DNA of 64,000 nt. Source: Eledone cirrhosa (lineage: Eukaryota). The notes under the pieces were generated by a model. That model worked only from the letters and a program-made list of their open reading frames with translations, did no database searches and was not told the origin of the DNA. The stretch covers positions 313,286,001 through 313,350,000 of the forward strand of contig OZ024743.1 of assembly GCA_964016885.1 (NCBI GenBank), written 5' to 3'. A program made the position numbers and the translations under genes. Shown piece after piece: positions 8,855 through 64,000 of this stretch (positions are counted from its first letter, which is position 1; the number at the start of each line of letters is the position of its first letter).

Positions 8855-10259
8855 TTGTATTGGAATGATATGAAAATATTTTATACACTAGATAAAAGAG
8901 AAAGAAGGAGGTAGGAAGAGAAGGGGAAGAGGGAAGTGAGTAAGGGGGGGAGGAGTCCTAGGATTTAAGACTGTCAGACTAGTAGAGATTGTGAGGAGAG
9001 AATGTTTTGGCAGCAGTTAGCTTAATGAGGCGTGTTAGGGTTGGCGGGGGAAGTAAATTCTTCTAGTGGTGTTGTTCGGACAAAATTTAGTTAAAGGGGT
9101 CAAAGAGGTACAGAGTTACAGACAAGTTATTGGGGCTATTATAGTAGCAGGTTATTTCTAAAGGGGTCCAGAAAACAGTGTTTAGTACTATTATTATAGA
9201 AAGCCATATCTTGTGTATAAACATATAAAACAGAAATTTGCAAACGGTGGTGTAAAAAGGTAACATTATATGCATTTAAAAAAAGAAAAAGTCGTTTTCA
9301 GACGATGTTTACAGTATAGTGAACGTTCAATTTTGCTGTTCAAAAGTTTGTTTACCGACGTTAAAAATGTAGTATATCTCCAAATTGCATAACTTGCAGA
9401 ATCGATGATTTTGCTTATATGCAGGCGCAACTGAAATAATTTGCCAATCAAGGGAGAATGCTTGATTGTTCCTCCGGTTGCCAGGCTTTATCGGCGAGGG
9501 TTGTTACGGAGCGCATTTTCTCGTGCCTGATCGAAGATCGATGTTGGTATAGGCGAGCTTTGAAAGAAGTTGCGGTACATCCGACGTAATACCATTTGTT
9601 GGTTCCGGAATTTATTGTACATCGGTAGACAATATTGCGTGCTAGGCACTGGTTATTCAGTGGGCACGTACCTGGTTTGGTGCAGTTACAATTATTTTTA
9701 TGTTTTGCAGTAGAATCCTGGATAGTTTGGTGGGTTGTAGTTGCGTGTTGGTGCGTTGTATGTTGCTATGCTGGTGCGCTGAGTCATTAGGGATGTACTT
9801 ATTTAGTATTGCTGAGTTGAGTTTTTTAATTAGTTGTTCTATGTTAAGTGCAGTGGAGTATGAGAGTCTAATGGTGCGCGAGTTAAAGATTTTATAGTAT
9901 TTATGTGAAGTTGTAAAGTGTTTATTGATTAGTGTATAGAATTGTGAGATAATCTTAGTGCTAATAGAAGTATTGTACACGGGGTTATACCATATGTACT
10001 CTCTACGTCTGACTCTATTTGCTGGTTTGCACCTATTAGTATGCCTATTGATGTGTGTGTGTGGTGCAATACTAGTTCGACTTAGATGTGTTTTATTCAT
10101 AGTACTTATGTGGTTATCGTCTATATATTCTATTTTCTCGCAGTAACCAGCTTTTCTAAGTGCGTCATTATAATATTCAGCATGCTCGTTGAAGGTCTGC
10201 AAATTAGACGACAGTCGGGAGATCCTTATGGATATATTTTTAGGGATAGATTTAATAAT

Positions 10260-10367
10260 TGTTTCTACGTTAGGCACAAGGCCAGCAATGACCCAGTGTA
10301 TTACTGGTACTTTATTTTATCGACCCCGTAAGGATGAAAGGCAAAGTTAACCTCGGCGGGATTTGTG
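10260..10367 (-). mobile_element. 5'-truncated Nin/Deu-like SINE inserted in the PLE RT, with 12-bp target-site duplication
   Basis: AGATTTAATAAT at 10248-10259 and 10368-10379; the PLE frame HSIIKS|IPKNIS resumes across the insert. Confidence 0.85.
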
Positions 10368-10765
10368 AGATTTAATAATGGAATGGGGATGGTTCAATTT
10401 TACATTAACGTACTTGAGATTTTCATTAAGTTTGTGAAATGGCTCTATATTACCGTTATTAAGGTTGAAGGTGACATTCAAGAAGTTGACCACCTTAAGA
10501 TTGTGTTCGAAGGTAATATTAAGCCCTAGTTCTAAGAAAAGTTTCCTAATGTTTTTACGTCGCCTTTCTAGGTTTTGTTTGTTCATATTCTTGACTAATA
10601 GAAGTGTATCGTCGCGGTAAATTCCGCCGTGGAGGTCCGTAAATTCTCTCTGGAGTCTGTGGGCTATATAAATCCCAACCAGATCCGTGACCTCCGCCGA
10701 ATCATTAGAACCCTTCTTTCTCTTTTATCTAGTGTATAAAATATTTTCATATCATTCCAATACAA

Positions 10766-13994: not shown

Positions 13995-14432
13995 TATGTA
14001 TACGTACATACATATATGTATACAGACGTACAGTAGTATGTATATACATACAAATGCTCGGGTTGTTTGTTTGTAAACAAACAGCCCGAATTAAGCTGTA
14101 CAGTGTTCGGCAACCATCGTTGCCGTTTTGTTCAACACTGACAAAGGAACGAGGAACTGGTGTTTAGCTTATTAGCTGTCATCAGCACCGTATACCTTCC
14201 TGTCAGTTGATTGAACGTTTGAAAGTATATACTTTCTTTATGCATATTAACGGCTGAGTAGCCTAATTTGCATATCGAGTTTGATAGTCGACTGGGCGTA
14301 CCGAAAACGGTAAAAGGAAAAAATAAAATTTAATTTCTCACTCTTAGCACGGGTGATACCTAAATATAAGTATGTATATGTGCATACATATATGTATACA
14401 GACGTACAGTAGAATGTATATACATACATACA

Positions 14433-14437
<5 letters not shown>
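13995..14437 (-). mobile_element. Family E HHR-bearing non-coding unit (~1 copy, HHR degraded at 14150-14192)
   Basis: Homologous to 14504-15185 (inverted) and to 61550-62552. Confidence 0.85.
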
Positions 14438-14503
<66 letters not shown>

Positions 14504-15185
14504 GTTCATCGTTCCTGTGTTGAACAAATTGGCAACGATCGTTGCCGAACACTGTACGGCTAATAATTCTGGCTGTGTGTTTGCAAACAACCCGAGCATT
14601 ATAATAAATGTTCGGTAAACCCATACGTACATATATATATGTGTGCATGTATGTATGTATATACATACTACTGTACGTCTGTATACATATATGTATGTAC
14701 GTATACATATTTATATTTAGGTATCAGCCGTGCTAAGAGTGAGAAATGAAATTTCATTTTTGCCATTTATCGTTTTTGGTACGCCCGGCCGACTAACTCA
14801 CTCGATATGCAAATTAGGCTACTCAGCCGTTAATATGCATAAGGAAAGTATATACTTTCAAACGTTCAATCAACTGACAGGAAGGTATAAGGTGCTGATG
14901 ACAGCTAATAAGCTAGAAACTAGTTCATCGTTCCTTTGTCAGTGTTGAACAAAATGGCAACGATGGTTGCCGAACACCGTACGGCTAATAATTCGGGCTG
15001 TTTGTTTACAAACAAACCGAGCATTATAATAAATGTTCGGTAAACCCATACGTACATATATATATGTGTGCATGTATGTATGTATATTCATACTACTGTA
15101 CGTCTGTATACATATATGTATGTACCTAAGCATACTTATATTTAAGTATCAGCCGTACTAAGAGTGAGAAATGAAATTTCATTTT
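14504..15185 (+). mobile_element. Family E tandem unit, 419 nt period, ~1.6 copies (retrozyme-like)
   Basis: GTTCATCGTTCC at 14504 and 14923; no coding potential; (TA)n on both sides. Confidence 0.85.
14889..14931 (+). ncRNA. Minimal type I hammerhead ribozyme (family E)
   Basis: AAGGUG-CUGAUGA-CAGCU-AAUA-AGCUA-GAAA-CUAG-UU-CAUCGU; palindromic AACUAGUU in place of stem III. Confidence 0.75.
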
Positions 15186-15189
15186 TTTT

Positions 15190-15235
<46 letters not shown>

Positions 15236-15661: not shown

Positions 15662-16449
15662 GTTTTGCGAGGTTTTTGATATGAAATCGTGTGTCGAAAC
15701 AAATATTGTTATACTTGGGGAGGGTCATATTTGTGTAATAATATTGCCAGAATTAATACTATACGAACATGCCAGACAACAACTCGACGGTAACATAGAC
15801 AACATAGAAATTAGAATAATATCTAAACATAGAAATGACCCAGCAGATAGGCAAATCAGAGAGGCCAGCGAAATAGAACTTAGAAGGCCAAGGCTAAACA
15901 GAAAAAATGAATGGAATAACAACAACACCCTAACAAACAACACTGACCTAAGAGAAGTATAAATAAATAAATAAATACATACACAAGCACAATAACAACA
16001 GACACATATAAACACACACTAGTAAACTAAGATAGAATACAATAACCAATACTCAGTCACCTAAACACGAACACACATCAAACAAAACACTATACACACA
16101 CGCAAACGCATGCGCAAAGAAGACAAAAAATAAACAAATAAATAAATATATAAACAGACTAAATAAAGATGGCGTAGGCATACAATACAACGGGAAGAAA
16201 CATAATAGCACTACTGACGATGTTGCAGATGTGCAACGAAAGAACTTTGATAGACTATATATATGTGTTTGTGTCTATATTGTATCTGTATTTTTTACCG
16301 TTGGTCAGTCAATGGCAACATTGAGTACCGAATAAATTAAATTAACCGATATAAAAGACACAGAAGCGAAAACCAACCAAACAGTGAGTGTGTTCTGTTA
16401 TTAATTCTGGCAATATTACACAAATATGACCCTCCCCAAGTATAACAAT
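15662..16449 (+). mobile_element. Diverged family C PLE 3' end (GIY-YIG tail + pLTR) with inverted pLTR end 15662-15755
   Basis: LYEHARQQLDGNIDNIEIRIISKHRNDPADRQIREASEIE matches ORF 49672-50244; pLTR matches 50400-50833. Confidence 0.9.
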
Positions 16450-16487: not shown

Positions 16488-17036
16488 CCTGGACATCACC
16501 TCGCTCTATACCGTCATCCCTTATGATGACAGCCTCCGCGCTTTCCATCATTTTTTAGATTTACGCCTTACACCTTACCCCACCACTACCACTCTTTCCG
16601 CCCGGCTGAGCTCGTTCTCACCTTCAATGGCTTTCCTTTTCGGGTGAATTCTATCAGCAGGTCTCTGGGGTAGCGATGGGAACCAGAATGGGTCCAAACT
16701 ATGCCAACTTGTTTGTTGGCTACGTCGAAGCCCAGATCTCCCAGTACGCTGGACTGACTCTTGAGCTATACGGTCATTATATCGACGACTGTATCGGCGC
16801 CCCCTCCCTATCACGAGAGCAGCTCGACTGCTTCCTTTCTTTTGTCCAATCTTTCCATCCTGCTCTCAATTTCACGGCCCCCGTCTCCGATTCTTCTGTC
16901 GCTTTTCTAGATATCTCTCTATCTATTAATCACTCTCATCACACCCTCTCTACCTCCATCCTCATTAAACCAACAGTCTTACCTCGACTTCACCTCCTCC
17001 CATCCAACCCACACCAAACACTCCATACCCTATTCC
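16488..17036 (+). pseudogene. Penelope-like (Neptune-type) RT fragment
   Basis: LDITSLYTVIP, GVAMGTRMGPNYANLFVG, YIDDCIG, FLDISLSI, KPT motifs. Confidence 0.85.
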
Positions 17037-17385
17037 CGGCCGATTAACTCACTCGATATGCAAATTAGGCTACTCAGACGTTAATATGCATAAGGAAAGT
17101 ATATACTTTCAAACGTTCAATCAACTGACAGGAAGGTATACGGTGCTGATAACAGCTAATAAGCTAGAAACTAGTTCATCGTTCCTTTGTCAGTGTTGAA
17201 CAAAATAGCAACGATGGTTGCCGAACACTGTACGGCTTAATTCGGGCTGTTTGTTTACAAACAAACCGAACATTATAATAAATGTTCGGTAAACCCATAC
17301 GTACATATATATATGTGTACATGTATGTATATACATACTACTGTACGTCTGTATACATATATGTATGTACGTATACATACTTATA
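17037..17385 (+). mobile_element. Family E unit fused to the PLE RT fragment; HHR with G8A at 17140-17182
   Basis: ACGGUG-CUGAUAA-CAGCUAAUAAGCUA-GAAA-CUAG-UU-CAUCGU; homologous to 14783-15140. Confidence 0.85.
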
Positions 17386-17927
17386 CTTATATATATATAT
17401 ATATATATATACTCACAGGCGAAAAGTCAACGAGGAAAAACAATATACGAGTGAAATACAGTACGTTAGAACATCAAAGGAAGATATAATGCGAGATAGG
17501 AAAAGAAACAGGATTGACGAAGGAAAGAAAAGGAAGAACGATAAACAATTTTGTAGGAGGAAAGCATGTGTATATTTACTCAGCCACTTTGGAAGAGAGC
17601 AGGTCAGAATAGGACTAGATAGGGAGATAATCATTCATATTTTGAATTGTCATGTGTGTGTGCACGCGTTTGAGTGTTTGTTTGTCTGTACAAAGCTGTG
17701 GGTATATAAAAGAGTGATGTGTGTTAAACCAAGACGTACGAGTCTTGTTGTTGGAAGTATTAGAGTTTGTGTGTCATAAAACTAATTCCATCTTTAATCT
17801 CAACAATAGTTTCTATAGAGATAACTGTAGTGCCAGTACATAGAATCAATCAATCTAACATAAGTATATAATTTTCAGTAGCATTAACAAAGCGAGCTTC
17901 GTAATATGACTTAAATGATACCCTATA

Positions 17928-33379: not shown

Positions 33380-35023
33380 CTATCTATGTCTGCAGCAACT
33401 GAATAAATTATTCCTTAAATTAAGGGAATTTTTGGTCTTTAATATAAAGAATATTTCCTCTATACAAAGATCACAATTTTCTGAAGAGGAATTAAAAGGT
33501 GTAGCTTTTGAAATAATATTCCAAATCAGCGAATATTCAACATTATCTCGTTTTAGGTCCCATAATAGGCTAGATAGCGAAGTTGAAGATTTTTTGTTTG
33601 GATCTTTAAAAGAATTTTTATGATTATTGAAGCGGGATTTAAATTCTGTAGAGGTAGAACCGACATAATTAAATGAATTTAAATTAGTTTTAACATTACA
33701 ATTATAAACTACATTTTTAGCTAAGCAGTTGTTATTTAACGGACAGTTGGATTTATTTCTACAGTTACAGTTATTCGATTGAATATTACTTGGGTTATTA
33801 TTGGTATTTTGGTTAGGTTTTAAATTTCTATTATTAATTCTATTAATATTTTGCGCTAAATTTTTGGTGGAAGAGTAAGTTAATTTTATAGCATGTCTAT
33901 TAAAAATTGAGTAATATTTATGTGTTCTAGGGAAGCGTTTGTCAAGAGCTTTAAAGAATAGTTTAGCAATAGGGGTTTTAATATTAAGTGAGAAAGGAGG
34001 AGCGAACCATAATATATTCCTAGTTCTATTTCTTTTTCGGCTTTCGGAATTATTGTAATGTTTTCTATTATAGTTGTTAAAATTTTTACCATAATTAAAG
34101 TTGTTATTATTTTGCTTATTTTGTATATTATTATTATTATCGATGTATTTAATTTTATTTCTATACCCCGCTCTACCTAACACTTCGTTGTAATAATGCG
34201 CTTTTTCATCAAATATATTCTTATTAGATGAAATTCTTGAAATTCGTTCTTGAACAGAGTTCACTATAATATTTTTAACGGATCTGGGGTGATTAGAGTT
34301 AAAATTGACATAATTTAAGTTCTCATTTAGTTTGTGAAATGAATAATGAAGACATGTGTTGAGATTTAGTGTTACATCTAGAAAATTGACTATTTTATGG
34401 TTATTCTCTATTTCTACTTTTAGATTAAGGTAATTAAAAAATTGTTTAATTTGTTTTCTTTTTCTATTTAGTTCACAGCTATTATTTTCTATAAGTAAAA
34501 GCATGTCGTCACGATATAAGCCTCCGGTTACACCTGGTATTTTTCTATGTAGAGAATTAATTATAAATAGGCCCACAAGGTCCGTTATCTGAGCTGAGTC
34601 AGAAGATCCCATAGTTATGTCGAAATTATTATTTCTATCTGCCCTAGTCCAGAGTTGGTTATTAAATTCTATTAATGTTTTCCGTGCCGATAATATAATG
34701 TGCATTTCATTGCTAGTTAGGTCTGTATGTTTAAATGCGTAAGTTAGTGCCTTATTCAGTAGATTAGGAGTGATAGATGAGTAGTAGTTAGCAATATCCA
34801 ACTGAATAAACTTATTATTATAGTTATATTTAATTTCTTTAAACCAATTGATAACCTCACTAGTCCCTTTCCATAATATTAAGTAAGATAAATTAGGTAA
34901 ATTCTTAATTTGTTGTATTATTCTGTCTAGAATATTTTTGCTAAGTCTGCCCAGGTCAGATTTAGATGGTGCAATTAATCTGACTGGTAAATCATTTTCA
35001 AAGTTTCTTTTATGATCCTTCAT
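33380..35023 (-). CDS. Penelope-like RT + GIY-YIG endonuclease (uninterrupted 547 aa, N-terminally truncated; Hydra-type Cys motifs)
   Basis: KDHK, VRLIAP, LDIANYYSSI, ITMGSSDSAQITDLVGL, GLYRDD, NFLDVTL, CNCRNKSNCPLNNNC, VVYNC...YVGST, CDLC...CCRH. Confidence 0.93.
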   Translation of the reverse strand: MKDHKRNFENDLPVRLIAPSKSDLGRLSKNILDRIIQQIKNLPNLSYLILWKGTSEVINWFKEIKYNYNNKFIQLDIANYYSSITPNLLNKALTYAFKHTDLTSNEMHIILSARKTLIEFNNQLWTRADRNNNFDITMGSSDSAQITDLVGLFIINSLHRKIPGVTGGLYRDDMLLLIENNSCELNRKRKQIKQFFNYLNLKVEIENNHKIVNFLDVTLNLNTCLHYSFHKLNENLNYVNFNSNHPRSVKNIIVNSVQERISRISSNKNIFDEKAHYYNEVLGRAGYRNKIKYIDNNNNIQNKQNNNNFNYGKNFNNYNRKHYNNSESRKRNRTRNILWFAPPFSLNIKTPIAKLFFKALDKRFPRTHKYYSIFNRHAIKLTYSSTKNLAQNINRINNRNLKPNQNTNNNPSNIQSNNCNCRNKSNCPLNNNCLAKNVVYNCNVKTNLNSFNYVGSTSTEFKSRFNNHKNSFKDPNKKSSTSLSSLLWDLKRDNVEYSLIWNIISKATPFNSSSENCDLCIEEIFFILKTKNSLNLRNNLFSCCRHR

Positions 35024-35609
35024 ATTAATCTTAGGTTTAATGATCCTTCATATTAATCCTAGTTCATGCATTATACAAGAGGCATCTCTATTCAGTTTTT
35101 CAAGTTCGTCCTTATTTGCTACTTTGTATTTCTTCCTTAGTTCCTTCAATATTTTTTCTCTCTGTCTGGTGGTTTGATATCTCCCTGTTATTTTCCTCTG
35201 TTCTCTTTTTTCTTTTTTCTTTCTTCTTTTTCTTTATTTATCTCTCCCTTTCTTTTTCTACACGTTTCTCTCTCTCCGTCTTTTTACTTATCTCTAACAC
35301 TATGACTTACTAAAGTAAACAAACCACTATCCTGATGTCTTCCAAAAGTAACGGTCTCATTTAAAAAATGGTACGTCAATGTTTATTTATAAAACTGGTA
35401 TATATTGTATTTTGTCTGATGAAGGCATACCATAATTTAACTTGGTATCCTTGAATGTATAATGAAATAAATATGGTTTTATTTATATAGTTTCCATTTG
35501 TTAATATAGTATATCTACTCCAAATACTTGTTGAGTGCTTTATATCAGTTATAAAAATATTTGCTTGTTGTATCCCAACAATTTAAATAAAACTTTTGCA
35601 TATATATAT

Positions 35610-45342: not shown

Positions 45343-48082
45343 TTATACTTCTCTTAGGTCAGTGTTGTTTGTTTGGGTGTTGTTGTTGTTCCACTCATTC
45401 TTTCTGTTTAGCTTTGGTCTTCTAATTTCTATTTCACTGGCCTCTCTGATTTGCCTATCTGCTGGGTCATTCCTATGTTTAGATATTATTCTAATTTCTA
45501 TGTTGTCTATGTTACCGTCATGTTGTTGTCTAGCATGTTCGTATAGTACTGACCCGTTTTTTCGTCCTTTTAGTTCCCCCCAGTGTTGGTCTATCCTTTC
45601 ACCTATGCTACGAGCTGTCTCACCTATGTATGTTGTTGTCATGTTTCTGCAAGTACCCTCTGTACATCTTATGCTATAGACTACGTTTCTAGTTTTACAG
45701 TTTATCCGGGGGTTCACCTTACATATGATACACTTCCTATTGGTACAGTGGGTTTTCTTAAAAGGGTAGGTTTTGCTGATCAGGGATTTTATGGTGGTTC
45801 CTGGCTTTTCTACCACCTTTATTTTTAAGTGGGTCTTTCTCAGGGCCTTTCTACACTGGTTAGCTAATTTCCCTCCACAAACATGACACTCTGATATCTC
45901 TGGTTGTCGTACCATGATGTGGCCTTCCCTATCTTATGTCTAGCCCTATCTAAGCTATTCCATGATTTGCTCCTGTATAGTGGGCAGATTCCTTTCATGT
46001 CCAGTTCTATGAGGGTCTTATACTTTTCCATGGCTCCTTCGTATACTCTGACTCTGTCTCTTTGGTTGTAGCCAGAGAACGGCATGCGGTTGATGAAGTG
46101 TTGGATGTGTCCTTCCATTTCTGTTGGGTCGCACATGCTGGACACATTCTTCATCACTCGTACCAAATCTGCGATCAGAATATTAAACTTAGCACTACTG
46201 GACATTGCTGAGTTTTTGAGTATCAGGTATTTGGAGGCCATGGGTTTAGCATAGTGTGAGTGGAGAATTTGGGCTCTCTCGTCTATAGTGTTAATCCAGA
46301 GTTCTGTGTCTAATACAGGTAGTCTATTGTTAGGGTGTTTGGAAGGGAAGTCTATAGTTACAGTTATACTCTGGTGTATGGAATTAGCTATCTGCTGGAT
46401 GCTTTCCATCGTGCTACGTTCTAAATCGAACTTGTTAGTGCTCTCTAGTGGGGGTGTTCTTATAACTATATTGATATCATCTACATAACGAGAGTACATG
46501 ATGAGGTCTATGGAGCTTTCATTAAGGAGATCTTTAAGTCTCCTTTCCCACCATACCATGAAAAGGTTGGCAACATCACCAGCTATGCTGACGCCGATGG
46601 CTGCTCCCTCATTTTGGGTGTAGATTTTCTCATTGAACTTAAATATGTGGCCCTTTAGGGTAGTTTTGATACTAGCCCCTATTGCATGTGCGACCATTTT
46701 TCTTACCTGATCAGTGTTTTGGGGGGGTCCGTATGGCTTTGGTCCACCCAATCCACCTTCCTATGGGAGTCTTTTTAGCCATTGAGGTTATGGTGGGGGG
46801 TCTACCTCTTATAGGTCTACTAGGGCAGAAACATCTAAGGTCATGGCTGTCTAGGTAGTCAGTGTCGTAGGTAAGTCTAAGTAGGAGGCCCAGTTCGTCT
46901 GTGTCGACGTCGCAGAACTCCACCTCACTCTCAATGATCATCTCCACACATCTTTTCACAGCAAAATCAATGTTAATGGATGGGTACAGTGACACTACAT
47001 CCATGCTGCCTATTATGCAGTTGGATAGGCTCCTGTTTTTGTTGCACTCACTGATTCTGCTGAGGAGGTCCTCTGTACTTTCACATACATCGGGGGACAT
47101 CTTGATTATGGGGCGTATAACCATTGAGAGGAAGTAGGAGATCCTGTAGTTGCTAGCTATATTAGCTCCGCATACGGGTCTTGTTGGTGGTCCTGTTGTC
47201 GGGTCGTCGACTGTCTTGTGGTCTTTGCGGAGCCCATACAAGGGTGGTATGCCATTGTTAGACGCCTGGAAGTTGTTGGCAGTGCGTCTGCTTGGCTTTA
47301 GGATGTCAGTCCACATCATCATGTGAGCGTTGAGGATTTTTTCTCTCCCATCGTGTGTTATTTGTGCAACTTCGCTCGTGTTGGTGATGTGGGGTTGCAT
47401 TGCCTCGATGTAGTTCGGCATGCTATCTATTGACATCCTACCAGACTTATCTGTGGGTAGACACACTACCTCACCATCTCTTGTGCGCTGCTTGAGGCTA
47501 ACCAAGCCTTCTACAGGTTTTCTCCCAAGTTGTTGGGCCTCTGGTCTGCTCTGTCTCATAGTGTACCTGTCTACTACCTGTCTAATCTTATTTCTGGCTA
47601 TGGTGAACTGTGCCTCCGTCTCGTCATCTATTTGCTGTGGTATGCAAACTCTTTTATTAAAGGGTAACCTCGTAGGATAGATATTACCCATCTTATATGT
47701 TTTGTCAGCTGGGTTGAAAAATAGTTTCTCTAAGGGGTTGTCGTTATTTCTATCGTCATAGTTGTGTGTGTTGCTATTATTGTTATCATGGTGGTTGTTG
47801 TTGTTTCTATCATTAGCATTATTATTATTATTGTTATGATTGCTAGATGTATTGTTGTTTACTTCACCGTTATTGTTGTTGTTGTTACTGCTATTTCTAC
47901 CATTGTGGTTGTTACTATTATTATGTTTCTTGTTTTTGTTGATGTTGCTACATGTACTATTTTCATTATTACCACTGTGGTTATTGTTGTTGTTGTTCGT
48001 ATTGTTACAGTTATTACTACTGTGGTCACTGTTGCTGTGTCTGTGGTTAACGTTTCTATTATTATTATTATTGTGGTTGTTG
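45343..48082 (-). pseudogene. Left arm: PLE Asn-rich N-terminal region + RT + GIY-YIG, two frameshifts (~46720 and ~45870)
   Basis: ORFs 46711-48168, 45864-46751 and 45343-45915 of the track. Confidence 0.9.
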
Positions 48083-48085
48083 TTG

Positions 48086-49723
48086 GTTAGCCTCAAGCAG
48101 CGCACAAGGGATGGTGAGGTAGTGTGTCTACCCACAGATAAGTCTGGTAGGATGTCAATAGATAGCATGCCGAACTACATCGAGGCAATGCAACCCCACA
48201 TCACCAACACGAGCGAAGTTGCACAAATAACACACGATGGGAGAGAAAAAATCCTCAACGCTCACATGATGATGTGGACTGACATCCTAAAGCCAAGCAG
48301 ACGCACTGCCAACAACTTCCAGGCGTCTAACAATGGCATACCACCCTTGTATGGGCTCCGCAAAGACCACAAGACAGTCGACGACCCGACAACAGGACCA
48401 CCAACAAGACCCGTATGCGGAGCTAATATAGCTAGCAACTACAGGATCTCCTACTTCCTCTCAATGGTTATACGCCCCATAATCAAGATGTCCCCCGATG
48501 TATGTGAAAGTACAGAGGACCTCCTCAGCAGAATCAGTGAGTGCAACAAAAACAGGAGCCTATCCAACTGCATAATAGGCAGCATGGATGTAGTGTCACT
48601 GTACCCATCCATTAACATTGATTTTGCTGTGAAAAGATGTGTGGAGATGATCATTGAGAGTGAGGTGGAGTTCTGCGACGTCGACACAGACGAACTGGGC
48701 CTCCTACTTAGACTTACCTACGACACTGACTACCTAGACAGCCATGACCTTAGATGTTTCTGCCCTAGTAGACCTATAAGAGGTAGACCCCCCACCATAA
48801 CCTCAATGGCTAAAAAGACTCCCATAGGAAGGTGGATTGGGTGGACCAAAGCCATACGGACCCCCCAAAACACTGATCAGGTAAGAAAAATGGTCGCACA
48901 TGCAATAGGGGCTAGTATCAAAACTACCCTAAAGGGCCACATATTTAAGTTCAATGAGAAAATCTACACCCAAAATGAGGGAGCAGCCATCGGCGTCAGC
49001 ATAGCTGGTGATGTTGCCAACCTTTTCATGGTATGGTGGGAAAGGAGACTTAAAGATCTCCTTAATGAAAGCTCCATAGACCTCATCATGTACTCTCGTT
49101 ATGTAGATGATATCAATATAGTTATAAGAACACCCCCACTAGAGAGCACTAACAAGTTCGATTTAGAACGTAGCACGATGGAAAGCATCCAGCAGATAGC
49201 TAATTCCATACACCAGAGTATAACTGTAACTATAGACTTCCCTTCCAAACACCCTAACAATAGACTACCTGTATTAGACACAGAACTCTGGATTAACACT
49301 ATAGACGAGAGAGCCCAAATTCTCCACTCACACTATGCTAAACCCATGGCCTCCAAATACCTGATACTCAAAAACTCAGCAATGTCCAGTAGTGCTAAGT
49401 TTAATATTCTGATCGCAGATTTGGTACGAGTGATGAAGAATGTGTCTAGCATGTGCGACCCAACAGAAATGGAAGGACACATCCAACACTTCATCAACCG
49501 CATGCAGTTCTCTGGCTACAACCAAAGAGACAGAGTCAGAGTATACGAAGGAGCCATGGAAAAGTATAAGACCCTCATAGAACTGGACATGAAAGGAATC
49601 TGCCCACTATACAGGAGCAAATCATGGAATAGCTTAGATAGGGCTAGACATAAGATAGGGAAGGCCACATCATGGTACGACAACCAGAGATATCAGAGTG
49701 TCATGTTTGTGGAGGGAAATTAG
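48086..49723 (+). CDS. Right arm: PLE reverse transcriptase (5'-truncated; frameshift before endonuclease)
   Basis: TDKSG, LYGLRKDHK, RPVCGA, SMDVVSLYPSI, QNEGAAIG, YSRYVDD, LPVLD, YAKP; the upstream poly-Leu part of the ORF call is the antisense Asn repeat. Confidence 0.9.
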   Translation, partial: VSLKQRTRDGEVVCLPTDKSGRMSIDSMPNYIEAMQPHITNTSEVAQITHDGREKILNAHMMMWTDILKPSRRTANNFQASNNGIPPLYGLRKDHKTVDDPTTGPPTRPVCGANIASNYRISYFLSMVIRPIIKMSPDVCESTEDLLSRISECNKNRSLSNCIIGSMDVVSLYPSINIDFAVKRCVEMIIESEVEFCDVDTDELGLLLRLTYDTDYLDSHDLRCFCPSRPIRGRPPTITSMAKKTPIGRWIGWTKAIRTPQNTDQVRKMVAHAIGASIKTTLKGHIFKFNEKIYTQNEGAAIGVSIAGDVANLFMVWWERRLKDLLNESSIDLIMYSRYVDDINIVIRTPPLESTNKFDLERSTMESIQQIANSIHQSITVTIDFPSKHPNNRLPVLDTELWINTIDERAQILHSHYAKPMASKYLILKNSAMSSSAKFNILIADLVRVMKNVSSMCDPTEMEGHIQHFINRMQFSGYNQRDRVRVYEGAMEKYKTLIELDMKGICPLYRSKSWNSLDRARHKIGKATSWYDNQRYQSVMFVEGN

Positions 49724-50244
49724 CTAACCAGTGTAGAAAGGCCCTGAGAAAGACCCACTTAAAAATAAAGGTGGTAGAAAAGCCAGGAACCACCATAAAA
49801 TCCCTGATCAGCAAAACCTACCCTTTTAAGAAAACCCACTGTACCAATAGGAAGTGTATCATATGTAAGGTGAACCCCCGGATAAACTGTAAAACTAGAA
49901 ACGTAGTCTATAGCATAAGATGTACAGAGGGTACTTGCAGAAACATGACAACAACATACATAGGTGAGACAGCTCGTAGCATAGGTGAAAGGATAGACCA
50001 ACACTGGGGGGAACTAAAAGGACGAAAAAACGGGTCAGTACTATACGAACATGCTAGACAACAACATGACGGTAACATAGACAACATAGAAATTAGAATA
50101 ATATCTAAACATAGGAATGACCCAGCAGATAGGCAAATCAGAGAGGCCAGTGAAATAGAAATTAGAAGACCAAAGCTAAACAGAAAGAATGAGTGGAACA
50201 ACAACAACACCCAAACAAACAACACTGACCTAAGAGAAGTATAA
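49720..50244 (+). CDS. Right arm: Cys linker + GIY-YIG endonuclease (Neptune-like linker)
   Basis: CTNRKCIICK...C, VVYSIRC, YIGETARS...R..H, R..REA..I, LN. Confidence 0.9.
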   Translation, partial: LANQCRKALRKTHLKIKVVEKPGTTIKSLISKTYPFKKTHCTNRKCIICKVNPRINCKTRNVVYSIRCTEGTCRNMTTTYIGETARSIGERIDQHWGELKGRKNGSVLYEHARQQHDGNIDNIEIRIISKHRNDPADRQIREASEIEIRRPKLNRKNEWNNNNTQTNNTDLREV

Positions 50245-50526
50245 ATAAGTAAATAAAATTAAATAAAATAAGATAAATAAATACATACACAAGCACAATA
50301 ACAACAAGCACATAAACACACACTAATCACCCAGCAGACACAACACTATACACACTAGTCACACATCACACATAACACTATACACACACGCAAACGCATG
50401 CGCAAAGAAGACAAAAAAAAAATAAAATAAGATAAACAAACAAGCAAATAAATAAATAAATATATAGACAGACTGAATAAAAAATGGCGTAGGCATACAA
50501 CACAACAGGAGGAACAATGAATATAA

Positions 50527-50568
50527 CACCACTGACGATGTTGCAGATGTGCAACGAAAGATTTATGT
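50527..50568 (+). ncRNA. Hammerhead-like motif in family C pLTR (also 45020-45061(-) and ~16210-16252(+)); stem I weak
   Basis: CUGACGA-U-GUUGCA-GAUG-UGCAAC-GAAA. Confidence 0.5.
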
Positions 50569-50830
50569 AAATTATGTAAACTATATATATATATATATGT
50601 GTTTGTGTCTATATTGTATCTGTATTATTTTTGACCGCCGGTCAGTCAATGGCAACATTGAGGACCGAGTAAGTTAGATCGCAGATATAATAAAAGACAG
50701 CGAGAAGCGAAAACCAACCAAACAGTGAGTGTGTTCTGTTATTAATTCTGGCAATATTACGCAAATATAACCCTCCCCAAGTATAACAATATCTGTTTCG
50801 ACACACGATTTCATATAAAAAACCTCGCAA

Positions 50831-50875
<45 letters not shown>

Positions 50876-50880
<5 letters not shown>

Positions 50881-51038
50881 ATACTTGGGGAGGGTCATAT
50901 TTGCGTAATATTGCCAGAATTAATAACAGAACACACTCACTGTTTGGTTGGTTTTCGCTTCTCGCTGGCTTTTATATCTGCGATCTAACTTACTCGGTCT
51001 TCAATGTTGCCATTGACTGACCGACGGTCAAAAATAAT
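50876..51038 (-). mobile_element. Extra short inverted copy of the family C pLTR end across a (TA)n tract
   Basis: Near-identical to 44802-44967 and reverse complement of ~50625-50790. Confidence 0.9.
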
Positions 51039-60459: not shown

Positions 60460-60514
60460 ACTGCTATAAATATTTCGGTGACAGCCATCTTTATCTGTGA
60501 CCTCTTCAGGCAGT
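60460..60514 (-). ncRNA. Minimal type I hammerhead ribozyme with intact core
   Basis: ACUGC-CUGAAGA-GGUCACAG...CUGUCACC-GAAA-UAUUUA-UA-GCAGU. Confidence 0.78.
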
Positions 60515-61514: not shown

Positions 61515-61552
<38 letters not shown>

Positions 61553-61813
61553 GGAAAAAATGAAACGAAATTTCATTTCCCACTCTTAGTACGGCTGTTA
61601 CTTAAATATAAGTATCTACACGTACATACATATATGTATACAGACGTACAGTAGTATGTATATATATATACATACATGCACACATATATATATGTACGTA
61701 TGGATTGACCGAACATTTATTATAATGCTCGGTGTGTTTGTAAACAAACATCCCGTATTAAGCCGTAGTGTCCAGCAACCATCGTTGCTCGTTTGTTCAA
61801 CACGGACAAATGA

Positions 61814-61856
61814 ACGCTGTACTAGTTTCAAGCTTATTAGCTATCGTCAGCAACGT
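61814..61856 (-). ncRNA. Minimal type I hammerhead ribozyme (family E)
   Basis: ACGUUG-CUGACGA-UAGCU-AAUA-AGCUU-GAAA-CUAG-UA-CAGCGU. Confidence 0.8.
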
Positions 61857-62235
61857 ATACCTTCCTGCCAGATTGTTGAACGTATATACTTACCTTATGC
61901 ATATTAACGGCTGAGTAGCACAATTTGCATATCGAGTGGGTTAATCGGCCGGGTGCACCGAAAACCATAAACGGAAAATATGAAACGAAATTTCATTTCC
62001 CACTCTTAGTACAGCTGTTACTTAAATATAAGTATGTACTCGTACATACATATATGTATACAGACGTACAGTAGTATGTATATATATATACATGCACACA
62101 TATATATATATATATGTACGTATGGATTCACCGAACATTTATTATAATGCTCGGTGTGTTTGTAAACAAACATCCCGTATTAAGCCGTAGTGTCTGGCAA
62201 CCATCGTTGCTCGTTTGTTCAACACTGACAAATGA

Positions 62236-62278
62236 ACGCTGTACTAGTTTCAAGCTTATTAGCTATCGTCAGCAACGT
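62236..62278 (-). ncRNA. Minimal type I hammerhead ribozyme (family E, second tandem copy)
   Basis: Identical motif 422 nt from the first. Confidence 0.8.
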
Positions 62279-62552
62279 ATACCTTCCTGCCAGATTGTTG
62301 AGCGTATATACTTACCTTATGCATATTAACGGCTGTGCAGCCCAATTTTCATATCGAGTGGGTTAATCGGCCGGGTGCACCGAAAACGATAAACGGAAAA
62401 AATGAAACGAAATTTCATTTCCCACTCTTAGTACGGCTGTTACTTAAATATAAGTATGTACACGTACATACATATATGTATACAGACGTACAGTAGTATG
62501 TATATATATATATATACATACATGCACATATATATATATATATGTACGTATG

Positions 62553-63430
62553 GTTTTGTTATGGTTTTGTTATGGTTTTGTCTGTGTTTTTGCATTTAAC
62601 TAGGTGTTTCTTAAATGAGGAAGCGTTAGTATTGAGGTGTTCTTTTATTCTTATGTGAAGTGGTCTGGTGGTGCTACCTATGTAGAAATTGCTGCATTTG
62701 TCGCACTCTAATCTGTATACGACCTATGCCTGGTGGCATAGGTCGGTGTCGTTGATGGGGCAGTTGGCTAGTCTGCAGCGGCTGTCCTGTCTCGTGGACT
62801 GTCTTTTGGTTAACCCCCCGCGTAGAAAAGGTCCAGAGTGGGCTAGTTGGATATCTAGTCCCTCTCGTCTGATAGCTTTGCGGGTGGCTGTTGTTGTTTC
62901 GTCACTGAAGTGTGGGAGCTTCAGGAAGCAAGTGTTACTGCCTCGGGTGTGGTGTCCTCTGTTCTTTCTGGCACGGTTTGTGGTGGATGTCGTGTATCCG
63001 TTCAGTTTGAGTACTTCCAGGAAATGTGTGGTGTGTGAGTCTCGGTCTCTAGCGTCGGTGCATTTGCACCGACGCTAGAGACCGTTGATGGGACAGTTGG
63101 CTGCAGGCTAGCCAACTGCCCCATCAACGATACAGACCTATGCCACCAGGCTTACGTCGTATACAGACTAGAGTGTGACAAATGCAGCAACTTCTACGTA
63201 GGTAGCACCACCAGACCACATAAGAATAAAAGAACATCTCAATACTAACGCTTCCTCATTTAAGAAACACCTAGTTAAATGCAAAAACACAGACAAAACC
63301 ATAACAGTTAGGATAGAAACTAAGGAAAGAAACCTCGGCAATCTTAGAATTAAGGAAGCACTAATTATAGACAAAACACAACCACCAATCAATAATAGAC
63401 TAGAAATCAACACCCAATTTATAACTTGAT
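62553..63430. pseudogene. PLE C-terminus (Cys linker + GIY-YIG) in head-to-head arrangement: minus 62570-63070, plus 63102-63430
   Basis: LKLNGY...FLKLPH...CRLANCPINDTDLC...VVYRLECDKCSNFYIGSTTRPLHIRIKEH...LRIKEALII..TQPPIN. Confidence 0.85.
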
Positions 63431-64000
63431 AAAGCTTCTAGCCCCATATTTACACACACACCACAGGCACACACGCACACACACACGCACACACATACAC
63501 GCTTATACCTCCACTTATTCTCTCTCACACACACACATACACACACAAAGACCAGTTCTAACACGAGATAACATCTATCCCCCACATTTACGTATAGACA
63601 TATCTTCTCACACTCACACACACACACTCACATACTTACACCTTCATGCATTCTCCCACACACTTAAACAGGCAAGTACAAAAAAAAACCTTTTAAAGGG
63701 AGACTACTCTTTATCCACCTAACCTTAACTCTTTGACATTAGAGATAGAACAGATACTCTATACCATTTCCTGTCAGCATGACTTGGCAAGCTATTTAGA
63801 ACACTAGTTTAACTGCTTTACTTCCCTCCGAAGAAAAGATATTATTTCGAAAATTAAGGACATTTAAATAAATCTAAGGTAAAAGACTAATTGTCAACAA
63901 TATCTTTTGCATTTGCATTCTTTATTCTATGTCCATACCTGCATTGTTTTGGCTTTATTATACATATACAAACGTTTATACCTCATTACACAATGCTTCA

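Follow-up and report, generated by a model that had tools for sequence, protein, structure and literature searches.

A stretch of 64,000 nucleotides from the Eledone cirrhosa genome (the window) contains a head-to-tail array of a 422-nt non-coding unit, here called family E, with a predicted self-cleaving hammerhead ribozyme (HHR) in its full turns. On its sequence, family E is likely a new, very abundant family of the published retrozyme class, and we consider it probable that this non-LTR retrozyme is copied into (TA)n by the endonuclease (EN) and reverse transcriptase (RT) of an autonomous PLE acting in trans. The element is ordinary in kind; the parts of interest to specialists are the rule that its inverted arms end at two different sites, A and B, and the long identical inverted arrays.

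The family E array and its relatives in the window

Tandem Repeats Finder identified a repeat with a period of 422, 2.4 copies and 94% matches at 61547-62553 of the window, and sequence inspection placed the array of 2.4 head-to-tail units of 422 nt at 61550..62556 on the minus strand. The longest stop-free stretches in the unit are 53 codons on the HHR strand and 84 on the antisense strand, indicating that it is non-coding. A non-coding unit of about 420 nt in about 2.4 tandem copies, as reported in the first-pass annotation, was thus confirmed, with no ORF of more than 84 codons. Counted from the predicted HHR cut, the 5' end of the array is at unit position 114 and its 3' end at position 275 (end B). 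A (TA)n tract at the 3' end (61517..61549) is the likely target, and the 5' junction (62549..62581, minus strand) has a CCATA microhomology with a PLE fragment and three copies of an 11-nt unit.

Relatives that are about 85% identical to the array were found at 13995-14458, 14504-15191, and 17035-17389. The arm at 13995..14458 (minus strand) belongs to an older E subfamily, ends at end A (about position 219) and has a damaged HHR, while its partner at 14504..15191 (plus strand) consists of 1.6 units, ends near B, and has an HHR with C3 at 14895. Together they form a tail-out A+B pair, so the single copy at 13995-14437 and the 1.6 copies at 14504-15185 that had been taken for separate insertions look rather like the two arms of one inverted insertion. 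The arm at 17035..17389 (plus strand) runs from unit position 289 through an HHR with a G8A change to end A, which is followed by (TA)n.

One predicted cut-to-cut monomer of 422 nt (61820..62241, minus strand) is closed by an extended stem I. Compared with shuffled sequences, the monomer had a fold z of -4.5 as a linear molecule (61821-62242), -5.3 as a circle, and -2.8 once a TA-rich hairpin was removed, so that the predicted fold is highly self-paired, as in the definition of non-LTR retrozymes. The other retrozyme features found were a short tandem unit (150-450 bp), multiple copies and a GC content below 50%. Family E arrays range from 1 to more than 8 units, the unit is AT-rich, and an LTR-like layout was absent from the end map.

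The predicted hammerhead ribozyme

A motif scan of the window identified three type I HHRs, two of them on the minus strand (61850 and 62272) and one on the plus strand (17146), while each of 20 locally shuffled windows gave 0-1 matches. A fourth HHR, at 14895, has one stem I mismatch in the alignment. HHR 1 (61795..61885, minus strand, C3 at 61850) has a palindromic stem III, U·U at 10.1-11.1, and a predicted cut 3' of 61820 after GUA; HHR 2 (62217..62307, minus strand, C3 at 62272) has a predicted cut 3' of 62242. At least two consecutive units of the array therefore bear an HHR. On the minus strand, each full turn contains CUGACGA, a stem-loop II of 14 nt and GAAA; its stem III is the palindrome ACUAGU, its cleavage triplet is GUA, and its stem I has 6 bp. 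This stem I resumes beyond an internal loop, closing the whole predicted monomer.

The first-pass annotation had described this HHR as minimal type I, with a G-U to U-G swap in stem I, variation at N7 and N17 and the ACUAGU palindrome. The last three were all as described, and so was the type. The word minimal did not hold under the definitions of PMC4209133, in so far as that source is cited here: canonical metazoan type I HHRs have a helix I of 6 bp, a helix II of 4 bp and a helix III of 1-2 bp with a palindromic loop, while minimal PLE-type HHRs have a helix II of 7-8 bp, a helix I of 4-5 bp and G10.1-C11.1. With a helix I of 6 bp plus its extension, a helix II of 4 bp and a palindromic stem III, the family E HHR is, by its sequence, canonical metazoan type I. 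A minimal PLE-type HHR was rejected on the 6-bp extended helix I, the 4-bp helix II, and the 10.1-11.1 position, where family E has a U·U or C·A mismatch (14 of the 20 aligned rows).

In an alignment of 20 hand-picked HHR rows, 93% of the cells pair, compared with 23-48% in slid controls. Seven of the 13 pairs are altered on both sides, these changes stemming mostly from the single split between E and its sister family F (below) and thus representing few independent events. The core was intact in 72 of the 93 HHRs from loci fetched by DNA similarity, which is the level expected of neutral decay after insertion. Two HHRs of the window are probably dead: the one at 17146, which has A in place of G8, and the one near 14170, whose GAAA is damaged.

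Rfam gave no hammerhead match to the isolated family E HHR even at an E-value of 10, and only microsatellite-driven miRNA matches among the best 150 of 177 rows for the whole window. The hammerhead check that had been proposed for E was therefore negative, and it was family F, whose HHR has G10.1-C11.1, that matched Hammerhead_HH9 (E 4.5e-8), at 36.5 bits and so below the gathering score of 52.

Copy number and a sister family

The genome searched comprises 3.0 Gb in 1796 contigs. The exact family E HHR core had 11,845 matches and a reversed-pattern control had none; a looser HHR pattern had 40,408 matches, compared with 17 in its control. Family F, with a 466-nt unit and 7,830 core matches, surfaced through the looser search. 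It is collinear with E, with 287 of 410 aligned columns identical (70%, compared with 57±2% for shuffles), and has retained the core. Patterns for other HHRs with the same stem III returned mostly E, F and E mutants among the first 100 matches.

Five loci (L141, L143, L146, L147, and L155) contain a third E-related subfamily, with units of about 466-500 nt and AACA in loop II. In the window there are also HHR-like matches at 60509 and 31775, both on the minus strand, with long stem II regions and an AT-rich stem III. Motifs like these are also present in L187-L190 and suggest that there are additional HHR families.

Family E insertions end at two fixed sites

The end map was built from the first 100 core matches on contig C1. 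After neighbours were merged and 5 overlapping loci were left out, it comprised 80 loci, each chosen for an intact core, with 131 arms that were at least 100 nt long and lay away from the locus edges. Fifty-two of the 131 3' ends were at A (unit position 210-224) and 53 were at B (259-276), while 6 were at the predicted cut (some of these being alignment breaks) and 20 were elsewhere. In other words, 105 of the 131 arms stop about 219 or about 275 nt past the predicted cut, at two ends about 56 nt apart. The 5' ends were scattered, with 3 of 131 at the predicted cut. (TA)4 was found within 30 nt of 82 of the 110 free 3' ends but of only 18 of the 49 free 5' ends. The units had been said to abut (TA)n always, which describes the 3' ends well and the 5' ends poorly, those at 62556 and 17036 adjoining PLE fragments.

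Inverted pairs of E arms were tail-out in 37 cases, from 35 loci, and tail-to-tail in 3. All 22 of the classifiable tail-out pairs were A+B, and none were A+A or B+B, an outcome with a calculated probability of about 2e-7 if the ends were independent and 50:50. The 3' ends of family F, at 227-233 and 301-303, are homologous to those of E, and its classifiable pairs were A+B in 15 of 15 cases (17 seen), from loci partly chosen for matches on both strands. The autonomous PLE family P62 was examined at 20 loci, all of which, owing to the way the query was selected, have one common end point in or beside (TA)n; of the inverted P62 arms at unrelated loci that reach the 3' region, 7 of 8 stop 50 nt short of the main end.

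PLE insertions are described as 5'-truncated and biased to (TA)n, with partial tandems, an inverted 5' copy and a tail at one end (PMC8557442). In vitro, a PLE protein introduces nicks into both strands of AT-rich DNA, and its use of two internal RNA start sites generates the 'tail' (PMC11167929). Family E has this layout of a PLE-mobilised element, with fixed internal 3' ends, 5' truncation, an inverted copy and a microsatellite target. Its footprint is the PLE 'tail' signature, which autonomous P62 also displays.

PLE sequences next to family E

The array in the window is joined at 62556 to an ORF fragment of P62 (62557..63070, minus strand), which has a GIY-YIG-like motif by eye, runs in the sense of the array and is truncated at the junction. 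Beyond it, an inverted P62 arm (63078..64000, plus strand) contains the ORF end and 3' UTR and extends to the family 3' end and (AT)n about 20 nt past the window. The arm at 17035 is joined at 17036 to a PLE RT fragment (16490..17036, plus strand) that has a CCC microhomology to the 5' end of the arm and (TA)n on its far side, and which we take, by eye, to be from a Neptune-like PLE. Clade names for the PLEs were assigned by eye because Pfam searches of five PLE pieces gave a single weak RVT_1 match (E 0.002). The two 5' ends thus join PLE coding fragments through microhomologies of 5 nt and 3 nt, and both junctions lie mid-ORF, in two different PLE families. Such junctions may reflect template switching, co-insertion, or insertion into older PLE copies accompanied by loss of target sequence. 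PLE neighbours were found at 5 of the 49 free 5' ends and 11 of the 110 free 3' ends; since they are no commoner at 5' than at 3' ends, the junctions do not identify the partner.

Several other PLE arrangements were seen. At L083:2130-2760, the 3' end of a Neptune-like PLE, starting from inside its HHR, is linked directly and tail-out to the 5' end of an E arm. In a large inverted structure at L062:1810-4865, bounded by (TA)n, the two arms share one and the same junction of an E copy with a PLE endonuclease end of opposite sense. At least two more families have left PLE-like remnants of RT and GIY-YIG ORFs in the window, at 423-2471, 9448-10724, 33380-35047, and 45343-50244; one of these is in a complex inverted arrangement that contains an asparagine-rich insert near 47734-48174. 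At about 16205-16250 there is, by eye, a different HHR-like core with a 7-bp stem II that lies in the terminus of the 45343-50900 PLE family.

The first-pass annotation had asked for a check on whether the unit is the terminus of an ORF-bearing PLE, and the check came out negative: no unit flanking an RT-EN ORF was found in about 130 loci with 1.5-3 kb flanks, and the termini of four PLE families are unlike E. No arm runs from end B into an ORF in these roughly 130 loci of many thousands, and E arms that extend beyond end B enter the next unit. The last 100 nt or so of the four PLE families had no significant similarity to E (p 0.28-0.80), and no autonomous partner with shared 3' sequence was found among them, while E and F resemble each other (p 0.002). 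The P62 ORF starts about 25 nt before the outer end of the element, and the Neptune-like family carries its own short-stem HHR; the termini of both are unrelated to those of E. Family F compared with PLE 3' ends gave p values of 0.011 and 0.022 in 2 of 8 tests; these values are uncorrected, and each is for a different PLE family. Two other candidates were rejected: a 3'-end likeness of E or F to the Neptune-like PLE did not reach significance for E (p 0.11-0.51), and an ACUAGU hammerhead in P62 proved to be a variant of the window copy only.

Probable circular and multimeric templates

Because reverse transcription starts at A or B and crosses the HHR site without a pile-up of ends, a cleaved linear monomer was not the main template. 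Inverted E arms, compared at 11 common variant sites, mismatched in 9 of 206 comparisons (background 3.8%) and tandem neighbours in 30 of 251 (12%; background 3.1%), compared with 31.5% for random pairs, so that most E arrays derive from one variant. This diagnostic-site test took the place of a comparison in which divergence within arrays had a median of 3.5% and that from the nearest copies elsewhere was 1.3-2.6%. The difference was dropped as evidence against circles because picking the lowest value from many copies gives a downward bias and because neutral decay accounts for the values. There are also mosaic arrays (L103, L067, and L064, the last with ABAB periodicity), which are beyond what a single monomer circle can explain, and three of the common variant sites differ between the units of the window array.

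One family F insertion has 6 and 12 full units in its two inverted arms, and all 18 are identical. This insertion is one of two long F inverted insertions, G000:C1:30831609-30840868 (L224 and L225) and C18:30950484-30961705, with about 7+13 and about 17+8 units; the C1 insertion is the one with the 18 identical units, and its A and B ends are in (TA)n. The variant of the 18-unit insertion had appeared to be private but is common to seven loci, where it occurs 71 times in arms of up to 17 units, and a second young F variant forms comparable long inverted arrays. The lineage of long identical F insertions is probably currently active. Repeated long identical arms are most simply explained by rolling on a circle, though they could also stem from linear transcription of the longest arrays or from homogenisation during assembly. 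One of the six other loci with the 18-unit variant has a 17-unit arm and is a possible source of a linear template. Both circular and multimeric templates are probably used.

The non-integer copy numbers had been attributed to reverse transcription around a circular or multimeric template. Very young homogeneous arrays fit this attribution and mosaic arrays speak against a single monomer circle; the copy numbers themselves are better explained by two fixed internal start sites together with random 5' truncation.

In a 31-unit family F array, internal variants recur. Long E arrays with a three-unit higher-order periodicity or deletion variants were seen at L004, L005, L009, L018, L019 (C28), and L028-L030 (C12), and those on C28 and C12 are consistent with secondary growth as satellite DNA. 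In four possible RNA runs, coverage was confined to the TA-rich part of the unit. Three runs under other organism codes gave a few low-depth pieces and no evidence of the family in other species.

Proposed mechanism and competing explanations

Several lines of evidence agree with the retrozyme reading of the first-pass annotation: the tandem non-coding unit, a canonical HHR with covariation, more than 11,000 copies, a highly paired monomer and no link to a PLE ORF in about 130 loci. For a non-LTR retrozyme mobilised in trans, tandem transcripts would be cut by dimeric HHRs, with the palindromic stem III pairing between neighbours, and the 422-nt monomers would be ligated into circles. The PLE protein would nick both strands of AT-rich DNA, and reverse transcription would start internally, at site A on one strand and at site B on the other, and proceed backwards through the HHR junction for a variable distance, leaving non-integer arrays and inverted pairs. 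Long homogeneous arrays would probably come from circles and mosaic arrays from uncleaved multimers or template switches, with ordinary satellite growth later in some arrays. The unpaired 10.1-11.1 and the lack of an Rfam hammerhead match for E weigh against this account, as do the mismatches between tandem neighbours, the mosaic arrays, the 17-unit arm as a possible linear source of the 18-unit variant, and the lack of a partner among four PLE families. Only one of nine predicted dimers of Xenopus retrozymes was reported to cleave in vitro (10.64898/2026.07.22.740005). PLE insertion in vitro, moreover, did not depend on HHR cleavage (PMC11167929). A more specific proposal, which we regard as tentative and somewhat doubtful, is that E and F are viroid-like circular RNAs on which a dimeric Penelope-type enzyme carries out rolling-circle reverse transcription primed at two sites on both strands. 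A single event would then yield a palindrome of more than 10 kb with as many as about 25 identical units, and hybrid retrozyme/PLE insertions would record the helper, which may come from more than one PLE clade.

It is rather unlikely that the same PLE-dependent element always uses an uncleaved linear read-through template, so that the E hammerhead is weak or vestigial and circles have no role. The U·U or C·A at 10.1-11.1, the mosaic arrays with their ABAB periodicity, the presence of long source arrays and the absence of a 5'-end pile-up at the cut (3 of 131) would all be expected of such a template, and unprocessed RNA was the main PLE substrate in vitro (PMC11167929). Nevertheless, the HHR core and stems have been retained with compensatory changes between E and F, and the U·U is found in the same position in an axolotl retrozyme HHR that does cleave and form circles (PMC7229834). 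Furthermore, linear copying with 5' truncation should make arrays shorter from round to round, whereas arms of 7-17 units have been inserted repeatedly by the youngest lineages.

There is less reason still to regard the unit as the pseudo-LTR (pLTR) of a rare or extinct autonomous PLE, with the arrays as its 5'-truncated or internally deleted copies, which we consider improbable. The PLE-like layout of the insertions, the two 5' junctions with PLE coding fragments in the window and the resemblance of Xenopus retrozymes to pLTRs (10.64898/2026.07.22.740005) are compatible with it, and the sample was about 130 of many thousands of loci. But arms that pass end B continue into another unit, the window junctions are mid-ORF and involve two different families, and P62, the Neptune-like family and two more families have unrelated termini, the Neptune-like one with a short-stem HHR of its own. 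In addition, patterns for other HHRs with this stem III led mostly back to E, F and E mutants in the first 100 matches, and the HHR is canonical as in retrozymes rather than minimal as in pLTRs (PMC4209133). A satellite or DNA-mobilised repeat, spread by recombination or DNA rolling circle and carrying the hammerhead by descent only, is very improbable as a general explanation. In its favour are the higher-order periodicity of the long arrays on C28 and C12 and the recurring internal variants of the 31-unit F array, and satellite growth holds true as a secondary process for some arrays. For dispersed copies the end map largely refutes it: their insertions are polar, with 3' ends fixed at two sites in (TA)n and 5' ends that scatter, and they strictly obey the A+B rule, which an autonomous PLE shares.

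Relation to known elements

Non-LTR retrozymes were defined, and their circles shown, in coral, mussel (a family of about 350-390 bp) and axolotl, with PLEs proposed as helpers (Cervera and de la Pena 2020, PMC7229834). Family E resembles them in its non-coding tandem unit of 150-450 bp, canonical type I HHR, thousands of copies and highly paired monomer; its stem III, with one pair and a palindromic tetraloop, resembles that of the axolotl HHR_Amex1, and its U·U at the base of stem II resembles HHR_Amex2. Expression, cleavage and circles were shown for those retrozymes. Conversely, the fixed 3' ends, tails and inverted pairs seen in family E have no description in the parts of PMC7229834 cited here. 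Non-LTR retrozymes have also been described in Xenopus as non-autonomous PLE derivatives (Li, Clavereau and Pollet 2026, 10.64898/2026.07.22.740005). These are of the same class and have the same proposed helper, but the case for them is made from co-occurrence and pLTR similarity, whereas for family E it is made from the insertion footprint, and pLTR similarity was not found among four PLE families.

Family E shares with PLEs the AT-rich or (TA)n targets, 5' truncation, partial tandems and inverted 5'-truncated copy (Frangieh 2024, PMC11167929; Craig 2021, PMC8557442), as well as two internal start sites downstream of the HHR (PMC11167929). It differs from them in having no ORF and a canonical rather than minimal HHR, and its tail of about 56 nt, or about 70 nt in family F, compares with the 30-40 bp reported for PLEs. 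Non-autonomous PLEs of the Chlamys type (for example MRC1) are likewise non-coding, multicopy, head-to-tail and PLE-dependent; unlike E, however, they generally share 3' sequence with an autonomous family, and most lack a canonical HHR as described in the part of PMC8557442 cited here. Neither family E nor the tail signature in retrozymes was found in the openly accessible literature that was searched. The suggestion in the first-pass annotation of a possibly undescribed retrozyme family is therefore borne out for the family, which is new to that literature, and not for the class, which is published and includes the mussel family (PMC7229834).

A PLE helper for animal retrozymes has been proposed on the basis of co-occurrence, a shared HHR type and pLTR similarity (PMC7229834; 10.64898/2026.07.22.740005). 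In family E the insertions themselves bear the PLE tail signature, under a strict rule that inverted arms use different start sites, which is unusually direct genomic evidence for the mobilisation of retrozymes by PLE enzymes. The two exact RNA positions, and a substrate for a published PLE assay, make mobilisation in trans and the choice between circle and linear template directly testable. About 40,000 related HHRs represent a sizeable share of the repeats of this genome and a source of new satellite arrays. If the rolling-circle reading is true, these arrays would be direct genomic evidence of animal retrozyme integration and of the birth of a satellite in one step.
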